Part shown: positions 1 through 4,619 of the stretch, in pieces
Layout of the letters: every line of letters begins with the position of its first letter
Numbering within the stretch: the first letter of the stretch is position 1
Virus record (IMG/VR): IMGVR_UViG_3300032312_001422
Coordinates: 128,001-192,000 of that record
DNA length: 64,000 nt
From: a virus
Lineage: Duplodnaviria; Caudoviricetes
Reading direction: 5' to 3' (one strand)
The notes under the pieces: model-generated
What the model saw: the letters and a program-made list of their open reading frames with translations, nothing else
Databases searched by the model: none
Told to the model about the DNA's origin: nothing
Position numbers and translations under genes: made by a program

Positions 1-1224
1 AAATTTGTTAATGCTTATGTGGCAAATCATGATACTGTTGATGTAGATTCTCCTGGTAGTGTTCGACCAATCATAATTAAACGCAAGCAGATTAGAGGTG
101 TTATGAACATCCTATCCAACATGCCTGACTCAGAAAACAAAAAAACATTGGTATTGAACTTGTTTAGTAATCCTGCATATTTGTTACAGTTTATCCACGA
201 ATATCTTACCAACAAGGGCGAGAATGTTCCTCCGGTCAGCAATAATCCAGTTCAAGGCGAATTAGAAGAAGGCGAAGTAGTTCCAATGACTCAAGATCAG
301 TCTGTTCTACAGGCATACAATGATGTTCTTGAAATACTAAAAGCAAGTAAAACTAAACAACCTGATGTTGTTACTATGATGCGTCAAGACTGGGCCAGTC
401 GTTATAAACAACGTTTCCAAATCAGCACAGCACCAGACGGTAATTACTACATGCTTGATAAAACAACTAACCAACGTCATAGATTACCAGATCCACGTAC
501 ATTCCCCATGGAAGAAGATTCGTGGCACAACGGTCAAAACTCCTGGAGCAGTGAGCACGACCAATGGGCCAAAGAAAGCGTTGAAGAAACACGTTTGACA
601 GTGGGTGATCCTGTGGTTGTTACTGCACCAAATGAATACGAAGGCAAGACCGGCGAGATTAGCGAGTTTAGTCCAAGTGGTAAGTTCGTCATTGTCGACC
701 TGTATAACTACGGCGAACACAGCATGCACCTGAGTGATGTTGAATACAACAAATACGCTGACGAAGAAGTAGACGAAGGCTGGAGTGATGCAATGGTTTC
801 TCGAAGAACAGGCACGCCACGTACACCTTACTCGGTTTATATCAAAGGTAAAAAATGGAAAGACTTTTCTAATGACGATCACGCAGAAGCCGTAGCAAAC
901 AAATTACGAGCCAAGTTCAAGGCCGACGGACGTGATCCCAGTGTTATTACCATTGCCCCCACAGATATTCCGGAAGGTGTAGCGGAAGGTCAAACTGATT
1001 ACCAAAAGCGTAGACAGCGTGAGCGTGATGTAGATGCTGGTAAACCTGTTAGCCGCCAACCCCGGAACCCACAGACTGATTACGCTAAAAAACGTGCCAA
1101 GGAAAAACGTGACTTGGAGCAGTTTGGCGAAACTACCAACTACTGGACTAGACTACAGAATGAACGTAATACAAAAATTGCCAGTCTAGTAAATGAATTA
1201 AAAGAAAGCATTGAGAAAAAATAA
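1..1224 (+). CDS. 5'-truncated modular hypothetical protein (short modules joined by acidic xxE linkers; one SH3/KOW-like segment)
   Basis: Frame 1 is open from base 1 to TAA at 1222-1224; linkers ELEEG, SVEET, EVDEG, GVAEG, QFGET. Confidence 0.8.
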   Translation, partial: KFVNAYVANHDTVDVDSPGSVRPIIIKRKQIRGVMNILSNMPDSENKKTLVLNLFSNPAYLLQFIHEYLTNKGENVPPVSNNPVQGELEEGEVVPMTQDQSVLQAYNDVLEILKASKTKQPDVVTMMRQDWASRYKQRFQISTAPDGNYYMLDKTTNQRHRLPDPRTFPMEEDSWHNGQNSWSSEHDQWAKESVEETRLTVGDPVVVTAPNEYEGKTGEISEFSPSGKFVIVDLYNYGEHSMHLSDVEYNKYADEEVDEGWSDAMVSRRTGTPRTPYSVYIKGKKWKDFSNDDHAEAVANKLRAKFKADGRDPSVITIAPTDIPEGVAEGQTDYQKRRQRERDVDAGKPVSRQPRNPQTDYAKKRAKEKRDLEQFGETTNYWTRLQNERNTKIASLVNELKESIEKK

Positions 1225-1658
1225 TGGAACAATTAATCAAAGCGGCCAAGATTGGCTTTGCCAGCGAATACACTTTTTATCTAAAAGCACACTACTTTCA
1301 TTGGAACGTGGAAGGCCCAGACTTCAGCCAACTGCATGATCTATTTGGAAAAATCTACGAAGAAGTGTATGGTGCTATCGATCCATTTGCTGAAAAAATT
1401 CGTGCTATGGGAACCTATGCGCCAGGCTCCAGCAGCAGATTCAACATGCTGAGCCGCATAGAAGATGAAACCAGCATACTTCCAGCCGAAGCCATGGTAC
1501 AAGAATTACTACAAGATTCAGACAACATGGTCAAACTACTGAAACGAGTTTATGATGTTGCCGAAGCGGCAGGCGAGCATGGTTTCTCAAACTTCCTTGC
1601 GGAACGTATGGATGCTCATAGAAAACATAGTTGGATGCTACGTGCCACAGCAAAATGA
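1224..1658 (+). CDS. dps: Dps/ferritin-like DNA protection protein
   Basis: Dps motifs HYFHWNVEG, LHDLFGKIYEE, IDPFAEKIR, HRKHSWML. Confidence 0.93.
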   Translation: MEQLIKAAKIGFASEYTFYLKAHYFHWNVEGPDFSQLHDLFGKIYEEVYGAIDPFAEKIRAMGTYAPGSSSRFNMLSRIEDETSILPAEAMVQELLQDSDNMVKLLKRVYDVAEAAGEHGFSNFLAERMDAHRKHSWMLRATAK

Positions 1659-2143
1659 AAATTAACGAAGTTTTTTCACCCCTAGATGAAAAGTGGAGCC
1701 GGAAATACAAAAGCTCTATCAACTGTGCCAGCCCAAAAGGATTTAGTCAACGAGCTCATTGTGCGGGTCGTAAGAAGAATGAATCCAAAGAACACACAGT
1801 CAACAACTTTGTTCACAAGTTTGCCCCTTGGGTGGCCGAACAGCTGGATATCAAACAGTTACCCAAAATAGAATTGTTGGACAAGCCAATGAACACCAGC
1901 TTTGGCACCTACGATGCCGACAACAACTGTTTGTATCTGGTCACTGCCGGACGTCATCCCATTGATGTGTTGCGTACTCTAGCACATGAACTCACACACC
2001 ACAAACAAAATTTGGCTGGGCAGTTGGATGCAAACTCCGGCGACACTGGCACCGACGAAGAAAACGAAGCCAATGCCAATGCTGGCATAGTCATGCGTGA
2101 TTTTGCAAGTGCCAATCCAGAATACTTTGGGCAAGACAAATGA
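1655..2143 (+). CDS. zincin-like metallopeptidase domain protein with basic Cys-containing N-terminal module
   Basis: ATG at 1655 overlapping dps stop; HExxH in LRTLAHELTHHKQ with downstream E (ENEANA). Confidence 0.7.
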   Translation: MKINEVFSPLDEKWSRKYKSSINCASPKGFSQRAHCAGRKKNESKEHTVNNFVHKFAPWVAEQLDIKQLPKIELLDKPMNTSFGTYDADNNCLYLVTAGRHPIDVLRTLAHELTHHKQNLAGQLDANSGDTGTDEENEANANAGIVMRDFASANPEYFGQDK

Positions 2144-2217
2144 ACCCAAACGAATATCCAGTATACCCCGAAGACGACGGCTATGATAATCCAAGAAATC
2201 CTTACAGCCCCGTCTAA
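2140..2217 (+). CDS. possible 25-aa Pro/Tyr-rich microprotein MNPNEYPVYPEDDGYDNPRNPYSPV
   Basis: ATGA overlap with the previous stop; below the ORF-track cutoff; overlaps the next ORF by 35 nt. Confidence 0.4.
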   Translation: MNPNEYPVYPEDDGYDNPRNPYSPV

Positions 2218-2929
2218 CGATCCCAGAGAGGAATTAGATACGATACTTGCTAAATGTTGCGAGGCAGTTCTTGACGGTCAAACCGCTGACTCAGAGTTTT
2301 ACGGCATGGTTGGTGCATGTGTGGTATGTCCAGATGGTCAACTAGTATACGGTGTCAACTATCAAGCTGAAGATGGACGTAGAGTACACGCAGAACGTGC
2401 TGCCTTAGAACGGTGTGACAACGTTACGTCAGAATGTATAATTGTTACTACGCTAAGTCCATGCAATCGACCCATGGATGAACGTGTGGGTGAAAGTTGT
2501 GAAGACCTAATTGCCGAATACGGCATTGAACATGTGTATTGTGGATACAAAGATCCCACACAGGAAGGTGATGACAGCATTGAGACTCGCAATGAAAAAC
2601 TACGTGAGCTGTGTAAACGACTGGCCGACACATTCTTAGATGAAGCCCGTAAAAAGAAACGCAAGTCTCGTGGCGGTTACTATGTTGGATATCCTTGGTG
2701 GGGTACATCGGACAGCACTGGCGGTGAAGGTGGAGATGGCGGTGGTATGGCCGAAAATTTTCATGATGGCAAGGTCAAAGGCAAGAGTCGCCCGGGTCGT
2801 GTTAAACGTTCAGGTGCCAGTTGTAACGGATCAGTTACTAGTCTCCGTGCCAAAGCCAAAAAGGCATCAGGCGAACGAGCCAAGATGTATCATTGGTGTG
2901 CCAATATGAAGTCAGGAAAGAAAAAATGA
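2183..2929 (+). CDS. cytidine/RibD-type deaminase domain fused to a basic C-terminal module
   Basis: HAE (VHAERAA) plus TTLSPC...C zinc ligands; YCGYKDP resembles RibD. Confidence 0.7.
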   Translation: MIIQEILTAPSNDPREELDTILAKCCEAVLDGQTADSEFYGMVGACVVCPDGQLVYGVNYQAEDGRRVHAERAALERCDNVTSECIIVTTLSPCNRPMDERVGESCEDLIAEYGIEHVYCGYKDPTQEGDDSIETRNEKLRELCKRLADTFLDEARKKKRKSRGGYYVGYPWWGTSDSTGGEGGDGGGMAENFHDGKVKGKSRPGRVKRSGASCNGSVTSLRAKAKKASGERAKMYHWCANMKSGKKK

Positions 2930-3984
2930 GAGCAGATGAATTTATAACAGAAAATTTAAAGCAGTGGTTCAAAGACAAATGGGTAAGATTTGGTCCTGAT
3001 GGCAAGATCCGTGGCGACTGTGCTAGAGGATCGAGTAGTGAAGGCAAACCCAAATGCTTGCCACAATCAAAAGCACAAAGTTTGGGCAAAAAAGGTCGTG
3101 CCAGTGCCGCGGCCAAAAAGCGTAGAGAAGATCCAAACCCTGAGCGTCGTGGAGCAGCCAAGAACGTGGCCACTCGAGTCAAAGAAGATGAACTAGACGA
3201 AGCTTGCTGGAAAGGCTACCACAAAGAAGGTATGAAGACCATGTTTGGCAAACGCTACCCTAACTGTGTCAAAAACAAAAATGAAAGTTTAGAAGTGTAC
3301 GTTGATCGTGGCGAATGTCCCGGTTGTGGCGGTGCTATGGTTGCTGAAGATCAAATTGCAGAAAAACAAGACGCTTGCTACCACAAGGTCAAAAGTCGTT
3401 ATAAAGTATGGCCCAGTGCTTATGCATCAGGTGCCTTGGTTCAGTGCCGTAAGAAAGGTGCTGCCAATTGGGGCAACAAATCAAAAAACGAAAGTGTGGA
3501 GAATATGATGGATGAATTAGATAGAATTTTAGAACTTAGCACAGGTGTCAGTGCCAGCGAGCGAGCAGAGTTAGCAGAAGAGTTTGATCTTATTGAGTCA
3601 AACATTGACGATCTTGCTGAACGCAATTCAGTAGATGCAGAAGTGATCTGGGAAGACCTAGAATCACTAACTGATGATGAATTGTATGTGTTTGCAACTA
3701 CAACACCTGTAATGGAAGATTGGCAAAAGGCCAACAAGAAAGATCGTACTGCTGGTATGAGCCAAAAGGCTGTGAACGCTTATCGTAGAGAAAATCCAGG
3801 TTCAAAGTTAAAAACAGCAGTTACTACCAAGCCTAGCAAGTTAAAGCGAGGTAGCAAAGCCTCAAAGCGTCGCAAGAGCTATTGCTCACGTAGCAAGGGT
3901 CAAATGAACATGCACAATATTTCGTGTGCCAAAACTCCAGACAAGGCCATTTGCAAAGCACGACGTCGTTGGAACTGTGAATGA
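2926..3984 (+). CDS. modular basic protein, candidate internal head protein
   Basis: ATGA-coupled start MRADEFITE; several K/R/C-rich modules separated by xxE linkers. Confidence 0.75.
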   Translation: MRADEFITENLKQWFKDKWVRFGPDGKIRGDCARGSSSEGKPKCLPQSKAQSLGKKGRASAAAKKRREDPNPERRGAAKNVATRVKEDELDEACWKGYHKEGMKTMFGKRYPNCVKNKNESLEVYVDRGECPGCGGAMVAEDQIAEKQDACYHKVKSRYKVWPSAYASGALVQCRKKGAANWGNKSKNESVENMMDELDRILELSTGVSASERAELAEEFDLIESNIDDLAERNSVDAEVIWEDLESLTDDELYVFATTTPVMEDWQKANKKDRTAGMSQKAVNAYRRENPGSKLKTAVTTKPSKLKRGSKASKRRKSYCSRSKGQMNMHNISCAKTPDKAICKARRRWNCE

Positions 3985-4619
3985 GTCACATAGTAGCTAA
4001 CTTACCCGCTGTAAAATGTTTTGTTCGTAGAGAGTTTTTGTATGATTTTGAGCAAGGTCACGGTGAATTAGAACCTGTGTGGTGGGTTAGCATTAAAAGT
4101 TTAAGAGGTCAAGCATTCCGTATTGAAAGCTATCTCAATCAGTATGGTGCTTTGTATGACAAACTACCCTTGCATGCCTATTGTTGGAAGCCCATAGAAG
4201 GTGAACCACTACCGTTGGATTACCTACAGTTATGGGACTGTCTCAGTTACGATATCACTGTGATCAAAAAAGCACAACTACAAAGTATGCGTTGCAAGTT
4301 CAAACTCAAGAATGGAGCCTGGATGTCAGGCGAATACATGTTTACTGTGGACTCAGCACATCCAGACTTTAACACACTTGATACTGGCTTCTCAGAAGAT
4401 GTAGAAGATCACAAAAGCTATAACTTTATCCGGTGTGACAACGGACAGTTTGCCGCACAGCCCAACAACAGATTGATCATACTAGAACCCAGTAGCAATC
4501 CTCGAGAACTCAAACAGCCAGACTTTCGGGTATCCACTCGACGCTGGAGTGTGGAAACAGATCCCAAATGGGCTCTTGGCGACACCAATACTGTCATGTA
4601 TGAACAGGTAAAAAATTAA
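3981..4619 (+). CDS. hypothetical protein
   Basis: 212-aa ORF coupled to the previous stop. Confidence 0.8.
   Translation: MSHIVANLPAVKCFVRREFLYDFEQGHGELEPVWWVSIKSLRGQAFRIESYLNQYGALYDKLPLHAYCWKPIEGEPLPLDYLQLWDCLSYDITVIKKAQLQSMRCKFKLKNGAWMSGEYMFTVDSAHPDFNTLDTGFSEDVEDHKSYNFIRCDNGQFAAQPNNRLIILEPSSNPRELKQPDFRVSTRRWSVETDPKWALGDTNTVMYEQVKN

Follow-up and report, generated by a model that had tools for sequence, protein, structure and literature searches.

The closest described counterparts of the genes considered here are head proteins of phage T4. The internal proteins (IPs) IPI, IPII and IPIII, as well as Alt, are made with a short N-terminal propeptide of the E-F-I-x-E kind, which ends in a site for the prohead protease gp21 (Mullaney and Black 1996; PMC9026906, PMC3012670). 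According to PMC9026906, ten N-terminal residues of IPIII are enough for targeting to the head, and cleavage by gp21 takes place after L/I-x-E. In T4, Asp in place of the P1 Glu blocks processing and leaves targeting intact. The present genes belong to an uncultured T4 relative with a genome of 288,815 bp (~289 kb; IMG/VR record IMGVR_UViG_3300032312_001422). The window, meaning the whole stretch of DNA that was analysed, is 64,000 nucleotides (nt) long and covers bases 128001-192000 of that genome. Its positions 1-3984 hold five closely packed open reading frames (ORFs) on the + strand, ORFs A to E. With a probability of about 0.7, four of the five ORFs (A, C, D and E) and the genes that immediately precede the window encode precursors of phage-head cargo that are tagged and then cut.

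The likeness to the T4 IPs extends to the basic mature proteins, to the diverse and fast-evolving cargo behind a conserved tag, and to a protease of the gp21 family. T4, however, places one tag and one cargo protein in each gene, whereas here one tag is followed by up to about ten shuffled modules, with a cut site at each joint. Also unlike the T4 IPs, enzymes are fused to small basic modules, and the leader has one residue less. The mature T4 IPs and the present proteins showed no similarity in sequence.

Other systems come close in other ways. The inner-body and ejection proteins of phiKZ, 201phi2-1 and SPN3US are also head-internal and are cut several times after Glu by the prohead protease, a diverged gp21 homologue that acts at S/A-x-E, and the cargo mass is ejected into the host (PMC9026906, PMC7411985, PMC10052503). 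These giant phages are of another lineage, P3 of their sites is small where it is hydrophobic here, and propeptides are taken off large proteins rather than strings being cut into small conserved modules. Polyvalent proteins of phages and conjugative elements, in the part of PMC5512222 drawn on here, each join 2-15 conflict-related effector domains in one chain and are linked to genes for packaging or transfer. Such mosaic chains are delivered with the invading DNA; zincin-like peptidases and ParB-like domains occur in them, and enzymes of the deaminase type would fit. Within that part of the paper, neither a T4-type tag nor prohead-protease sites at the joints define them, and small basic Cys modules do not appear among their domains. 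Most of the present modules are small basic domains without an assigned role, and relatives fuse enzyme domains as well.

True homologues of ORF E have been described as cyanophage gene cluster T4-GC119 (Sullivan et al. 2010, PMC3037559), there only as a hypothetical virion or "structural protein"; modular make-up, junction motif and processing are not discussed. Unlike the present cluster, the T4-GC119 members lack the canonical leader and stand between the small and large terminase genes, among structural genes. In adenovirus, the maturation protease trims the basic DNA-condensing precursors pVII and pre-mu within the particle. The parallel is no more than an analogy, since the virus is eukaryotic and its protease and proteins are unrelated. 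No paper on DUF6321, DUF5872, such leaders or polyprotein cargo in aquatic T4-like phages was found in a search whose cover left out subscription journals.

In the proposed mechanism, the cargo precursors would be transcribed late. A leader of 8-12 residues, M-[K/R]-x-x-[D/E]-h-h-x-E (h, hydrophobic), would dock each precursor to the prohead scaffolding core, much like the T4 capsid targeting sequence (CTS). A gp21-type prohead protease would then remove the leader and cut after each exposed hxE linker, so that the modules would be released separately, some as small, strongly basic Cys-pair proteins (net charge +5 to +21) and some as enzymes (zincin, deaminase). The acidic spacers would be chopped up and lost. 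The basic modules would then probably act as counter-ions along the packaged DNA, and some of the products, if not all, would leave with the DNA at infection. DNA binding and ejection of the products are suggested by analogy with the T4 IPs and the processed ejection proteins of phiKZ-like phages.

Modules and the joints between them

The proteins are built of parts. In ORF C, a zincin comes after a basic two-Cys module. In ORF D, the deaminase comes first, then a spacer, and a basic two-Cys module stands last. ORF E consists of four basic Cys modules and an acidic spacer, with DUF6321 last (Table 1). The initial annotation had taken these proteins for head-packaged polyproteins from the N-termini of the ORFs at 2926 (MRADEFITE, ORF E) and 1655 (MKINEVFSPLDE, ORF C) and from eight junctions: FITE/NLKQW, ELDE/ACWKG, QIAE/KQDAC, PVME/DWQK, GMAE/NFHDG, PLDE/KWS, GVAE/GQT and EVDE/GWS. 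Both N-termini and all eight junctions are present in the translation. The T4 facts that it invoked also stand, since IPII and IPIII start MKTYQEFIAE in the T4 record and the cutting rule of gp21 is as cited above.

The motif in question, hxE, is defined as [LIVMF]-x-E. It makes up 2.6% of the tripeptides in these proteins, and the ORFs hold 2-3.4 sites per 100 residues. This means that the sites of a single sequence are not above chance, and that their significance comes from position across relatives. Relatives amount to at least 8000 clusters at 90% identity for ORF E, at least 835 for ORF C and at least 3789 for ORF D, and those of ORF E to 6273 clusters at 50% identity; about 500 (505 proteins) were sampled. 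Profiles were built for six unrelated modules, each match was projected to the first residue of the module, and the distinct upstream contexts were counted.

The hxE motif occupies positions -3 to -1 in 608 of 704 distinct module contexts (86%) from the six unrelated families, as against the background of 2.6%. At these junctions L, I, V or M fills P3, with P2 and P4-P5 variable. At the start of module A2 of ORF A, Glu is at the junction or at most two residues away in most relatives.

The motif depends on what follows a domain. The zincin ends in ...FGLDK in all 41 copies that are terminal, and internal copies end in ...FGL-x-E or have an hxE nearby; hxE follows 0 of 41 C-terminal zincins compared to 18 of 49 internal ones (P=5e-6). 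Similarly, the deaminase ends in FL-x-E in 31 of 32 internal copies versus one of four terminal copies. Modules also occur as genes of their own in phages that are not T4-like. For example, gp24 of pelagiphage HTVC100P is a bare DUF6321 of 93 amino acids (aa), and Roseobacter phage CRP-901 (OQ401623.1) has a bare E4 as a 54-aa ORF followed by a 91-aa E1-like ORF, in all cases without leader or motif. The loss of hxE after C-terminal domains and from free-standing genes shows the motif to be a property of the joint rather than of the fold on one side or the other, and the free-standing genes suggest that the predicted cleavage products are natural working units. Taken across relatives, this pattern is consistent with cutting of the precursors by the prohead protease. 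In CRP-901, the 54-aa and 91-aa ORFs have no feature in the record; they adjoin a DUF2213 gene and a gene for a large LysM protein.

Module shuffling among relatives, which the initial annotation had envisaged, is heavy, with 144 architectures among the 505 proteins. Relatives fuse zincin, deaminase, GNAT, SLT and cytidylyltransferase domains, and in two large relatives a cytidylyltransferase domain is fused to these very modules. No paralogue of the modules was found elsewhere in the genome by phmmer in six frames.

An AlphaFold2 model of the whole of ORF E has a mean predicted local distance difference test (pLDDT) score of 57 and was used only for locating flexible linkers. Segments with pLDDT below 50 are residues 1-15, 80-92, 120-127, 129-148, 186-196, 202-209, 260-265, 267-279 and 290-301, and all five predicted module-bounding cut sites of ORF E lie within such segments of the model. 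For the DUF6321 module, AlphaFold2 gave three to four helices at pLDDT 68; Foldseek found no match to this model in PDB, so that no function can be drawn from the fold. By sequence, ORF E had nothing in PDB at E <=1, and the E4 module had nothing among Atlas features beyond sub-0.9 matches to small viral hypothetical proteins.

The N-terminal leader

The core of the leader, M-x-x-x-[D/E]-h, opens 45 of 53 distinct N-termini in the ORF E family and 85 of 92 in the zincin family (130/145 together), against a genome-wide background of 22 in 379 genes (Fisher P ~6e-81). The strict nine-residue form was found at none of 1822 internal Met residues. The leader stands directly ahead of different first modules in different proteins, and is thus an element of its own. 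In the present phage, the core opens six of the nine consecutive genes at genome 124608-131984 (P ~5e-7).

The likeness to T4 can be read from the T4 GenBank record, in which IPII and IPIII begin MKTYQEFIAE, IPI MKTFKEFTSTTTPVSTITE, gp24 MAKINELLRE and gp21 MNEPQLLIE. In keeping with the CTS-like propeptide of about 10-19 residues, ending in L/I-x-E, that marks head cargo of the T4 type, the leaders of ORFs E, C and A (MRADEFITE, MKINEVFSPLDE and MFVFDLFE) resemble those of IPII/IPIII, IPI and gp24, and those of relatives include MRYHEFIAE and MKTYQFITE. The comparison across relatives supports the leader and the junction motif as conserved, position-specific signals. A Sec or other export signal was ruled out for the leader, which is short and charged and has no hydrophobic core.

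Several scattered genes of the genome carry the leader as well, among them one for a PHROG "virion structural protein" that is taken up below. A 952-aa protein with an Amidoligase_2 domain, at genome 66569, starts MRYKELLSE, and a 133-aa protein with a ParB-like DGNHR motif, at genome 70479, starts MRAQEFVTE; both are likely to be further cargo, encoded far from the cluster. A 77-aa ORF at genome 246257-246490, between the portal and core genes, starts MIISELFD, similar to the MIIQEIL start of ORF D, and T4 carries gp67 (MEGLIE...) and gp68 in this place. About 19 of 137 diverse relatives begin with a second type of leader, M-S-[N/S]-I-[L/F]-K-G-L-x-x-E, which also ends in hxE and may be an alternative address tag.

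The protease, late promoters and virions

The prohead protease on which the polyprotein reading depends is encoded in this phage. T4-type genes for portal, prohead core, gp21 protease, gp22 scaffold and gp23 capsid lie at genome 244-251 kb. The protease gene, at genome 247560-248192 between the portal/core and the scaffold/capsid genes, matches PF03420 (Peptidase_S77) with 86.6 bits against a cut-off of 27, as well as the crystal structure of T4 gp21 (PDB 5JBL, 2.7e-14). The major capsid protein has MLAE/N just before its conserved core, where T4 gp23 has FLTE/AEIGG.

The timing of expression was approached through promoter motifs. The late-promoter form of T4-like phages, NATAAATA, has 71 copies in the genome, 41 of which are at most 60 nt upstream of a gene start, mostly with a spacing of 17-25 nt. 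It stands ahead of the portal gene and of many fibre, tail and baseplate-region genes. It also precedes the two genes that head the cluster, 18 nt before genome 124608 and 21 nt before genome 126299, a spacing like that before the portal and fibre genes, as well as three other leader-bearing genes. Across the genome, the exact T4 late promoter TATAAATA shows no enrichment (16 copies versus about 32 expected), and the looser NATAAATA with its fixed spacing is the informative form. The promoter motif suggests late expression of the cluster along with the head genes. One exact TATAAATA lies 17-18 nt, depending on the way of counting, upstream of a gene at genome 286621, whose product is a PHROG "virion structural protein" that starts MMKPFQTYIAE, near the T4 tag.

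Evidence from particles comes from cyanophages. ORF E belongs to T4-GC119, whose members share E1, E2, E4 and DUF6321 with it and range from 276 to 2985 nt in length among 15 phages (PMC3037559). T4-GC119 was found in purified S-SM1 virions by mass spectrometry, with 13 peptide counts (PMC3037559 Table S8). The S-SM1 gene, SSM1_115 (1488 nt), aligns to ORF E via E1, E4, E2 and DUF6321 (E = 7e-35), and its conserved modules come after IQE, FQE and QNE. In S-SCSM1, the homologue gp029 is annotated "virion protein", a tag that the authors of the record give to proteins detected by mass spectrometry; virion status in this phage was taken from these GenBank product tags. The initial annotation had held that absence from virions would overturn its reading, and for the family of ORF E these two homologues speak to the contrary. 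Virion presence is known for the homologues only, in S-SM1 and S-SCSM1, the present phage being known as a DNA sequence. Cytidylyltransferase/NMNAT-like proteins also recur in cyanophage virion proteomes (including PMC3037559). The first gene of the present cluster encodes a leader-bearing cytidylyltransferase-like protein, which is linked to cyanophage T4-GC190 by family-level profiles only.

On sequence-level features, then, the system would be classed with cargo of the T4 IP/Alt type.

Weighing the alternatives

Several observations weigh against this reading. T4-GC119 was not detected in Syn9 virions (PMC3037559), and the S-CREM2 homologue has no "virion protein" tag, although the poor tryptic peptides expected of Lys/Arg-rich fragments may explain such patchy detection. 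The proteins that were detected in virions begin MPLVNQEAE (S-SM1) and MAKTCKPGYY (S-SCSM1) rather than with the canonical leader, and so the leader is not proven as an address. Overall, hxE is no denser than background, and any site that lies within a folded domain would escape cutting. The structure models are of low confidence, as the mean scores given above indicate. In this phage the cluster adjoins replication genes and not the head module. Lastly, the DUF6321 gene of HTVC100P lies among small non-structural genes, and the modules therefore need not act inside capsids.

The strongest of the alternatives, itself improbable, is that the proteins are packaged and stay uncut, the hxE linkers and the leader serving as repeated motifs for docking to scaffold or DNA, or that they are cut by another enzyme, such as the zincin of the cluster. 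The cleavage of members is after all predicted from sequence alone, the zincin module travels with these modules in many architectures, and autoprocessing by such peptidases has been proposed for head-packaged proteins of phage P1 (Iyer et al. 2017, PMC5512222). However, the motif is the cut motif of T4 gp21, with a nearly invariant Glu at P1 and L, I, V or M at P3, and the phage's own capsid protein has this motif at the expected place. Moreover, cyanophage homologues have the same junctions without a linked zincin in the loci read, and the module is the working unit, as its free-standing copies in other phages show.

Still less probable is that these are ordinary cytoplasmic multi-domain nucleic-acid-binding proteins or enzymes, in which hxE would be a habit of helix starts or linkers and the N-terminal motif would serve translation or stability. 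The place of the cluster beside DNA polymerase and nucleotide-metabolism genes would agree with this, basic Cys modules would be apt for binding DNA or RNA wherever they act, and the two cyanophages without detected or tagged homologues (Syn9, S-CREM2) could be seen in the same light. Against it, homologues are present in virions, and the cyanophage gene stands between terminase genes among structural genes. In addition, C-termini and free-standing genes lack the motif, the leader agrees with established head propeptides of T4, and late-promoter motifs head the cluster. The least likely alternative, auxiliary scaffold or core proteins like T4 gp67 and gp68 that are loaded, degraded and expelled with nothing functional left in the mature head, can draw on the many L/I-x-E sites at which T4 core proteins are cut before mostly leaving the head (PMC9026906) and on the site-rich acidic helical spacer of ORF E, but T4-GC119 peptides are found in mature virions, and the modules are strongly conserved, basic, also found as free-standing genes, and attached to enzymes.

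Parts of the ORFs and their surroundings

Table 1. Parts of ORFs A-E, in window positions; junction counts are distinct contexts among relatives
Feature	Position	Strand	Remarks
ORF A, C-terminal 407 codons	1..1224	+	Leader MFVFDLFE; no Pfam or PHROG family
ORF A, module A2 (TRLTVGDP start)	589..777	+	After SVEE; in relatives preceded by MDE, MQE or an N-terminal leader
ORF A, module A3 (GWSDAM start)	778..987	+	After EVDE; Glu at P1 in 14/14 distinct contexts aligned from its first residue
ORF A, module A4 (GQTDYQ start), basic	988..1221	+	After GVAE; Glu at P1 in 4/4 relatives
ORF B, Dps/ferritin-like	1224..1658	+	PF00210; phrog_3636 "DNA binding protein"; ATGA overlaps on both sides; no leader
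ORF C, leader MKINEVFSPLDE	1655..1690	+	Predicted cut after LDE; like propeptides of T4 IPI and gp24
ORF C, module C1 (KWSRKYK start), basic, two-Cys	1691..1777	+	hxE before it in 129/132
ORF C, zincin-like metallopeptidase domain	1802..2143	+	HELTH (HExxH); DUF6647 23.5 bits vs 24.1 and DUF6782 21.2 vs 27, both under cut-off; phrog_87 "metallo-protease", 3.8e-5
ORF D, deaminase domain, cytidine/deoxycytidylate type	2183..2644	+	PF00383, 45.1 bits vs 25 (passes); zinc motifs HAE and PC-x11-C in translation; leader-like start MIIQEIL; ends FLDE
ORF D, variable Lys/Gly-rich spacer	2645..2755	+	Ends GMAE
ORF D, module D2 (NFHDGK start), basic, two-Cys	2756..2929	+	Glu at P1 in 81/81, hxE in 72/81
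ORF E, leader MRADEFITE	2926..2952	+	Shares E-F-I-x-E with T4 capsid targeting sequence MKTYQEFIAE
ORF E, module E1 (NLKQWF start), two Cys, then linker ending ELDE	2953..3201	+	hxE before it in 105/118
ORF E, module E2 (ACWKGY start), CPGCGG piece and linker ending QIAE	3202..3363	+	Beta-hairpin in model; hxE before it in 153/180
ORF E, module E4 (KQDACYHK start), DUF5872-like, two invariant Cys	3364..3516	+	PF19197 on residues 153-193, 19.5 bits vs 27.5 (below threshold); hxE before it in 111/115
ORF E, acidic helical spacer with seven hxE sites, ending PVME	3517..3717	+	A 72-80 aa spacer before the last module recurs in relatives
ORF E, module E6 = DUF6321	3718..3984	+	PF19846 on residues 272-349, 36.7 bits vs gathering threshold 28.5 (passes); hxE exact in 38/78, within three residues in 76/78

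The net charges of the basic modules in ORF E are +14 (E1), +5 and +21 (DUF6321), that in ORF D has +15 and that in ORF C +8. The number of Cys is even in each basic module, and E4 and DUF6321 each have one invariant pair, with which a disulfide or a shared metal site would fit. DUF5872 is matched at E <=0.001 by 21 of 57 larger relatives, and E4 can at best be called a DUF5872 relative.

The genes are tightly coupled. The start codons of ORFs B, C and E overlap the stop of the preceding ORF as ATGA, and most homologues of ORFs C and E are called from the same start position. ORF A begins at genome 127092, 909 nt before the window, and is 710 aa in total, which makes the region larger than first stated. 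A tblastn search with ORF A against phage records found no match.

Three further genes of the same run lie just upstream of the window, at genome 124608-127089. The first, which starts at genome 124608 behind a NATAAATA copy, encodes the 465-aa cytidylyltransferase-like protein, which starts MFINELAE and gave two weak matches only when compared with phage records by tblastn. The second, at genome 126299 and likewise behind a copy, encodes a 61-aa protein that starts MKSSEFIKTLKE and has a mature part of net charge +7. The third encodes an acidic 201-aa protein.

On the other side, the next gene (window 3981-4619) overlaps the stop of ORF E as ATGA and matches phrog_3704 (1e-81). Two records give that family different public labels, "ferredoxin" (an S-SSM5 record) and "purM", of which at least one must be wrong. 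A T4-type DNA polymerase gene follows shortly 3' of the cluster. An ORF E homologue also stands beside DnaJ and ClpB-like genes on a 62.5-kb contig, JBBAKG010000036.1 (GCA_040403615.1), which was binned as Haliscomenobacter sp. The gene order is that of the present phage. This contig looks like a mis-binned fragment of a jumbo phage.

What tagged and cut cargo would mean

A bolder view, which is held tentatively and is somewhat doubtful as a whole, is that aquatic T4-like phages use a general grammar of two words, an N-terminal address tag and a cut mark at each joint, by which simple recombination could move any module into the head. There would then be a very large unexplored pool of virion-delivered proteins, with more than 6,000 clusters at 50% identity for the modules of ORF E alone. 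The basic Cys-pair modules might be disulfide-latched, DNA-condensing "phage protamines", and the enzymes (deaminase, zincin, acetyltransferases, transglycosylase, cytidylyltransferase, amidoligase, ParB-like) might act as effectors in the first minute of infection, with the same modules free-standing in phages that lack this protease logic.

Few viruses are as abundant on Earth as the T4-like phages of oceans and lakes, yet almost nothing is known of what their heads contain besides DNA. If the reading of ORFs A, C, D and E as tagged and cut cargo precursors is true, head cargo would be predictable from sequence, by leader and junction motif. The ten-fold length variation of the "hypothetical structural protein" T4-GC119 would also be explained. 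Existing virion proteomes would gain a clear task of re-analysis, and a natural tag-and-cut system would be at hand for loading foreign proteins into capsids. For the phages themselves, it would mean thousands of candidate injected enzymes and DNA-packing proteins.

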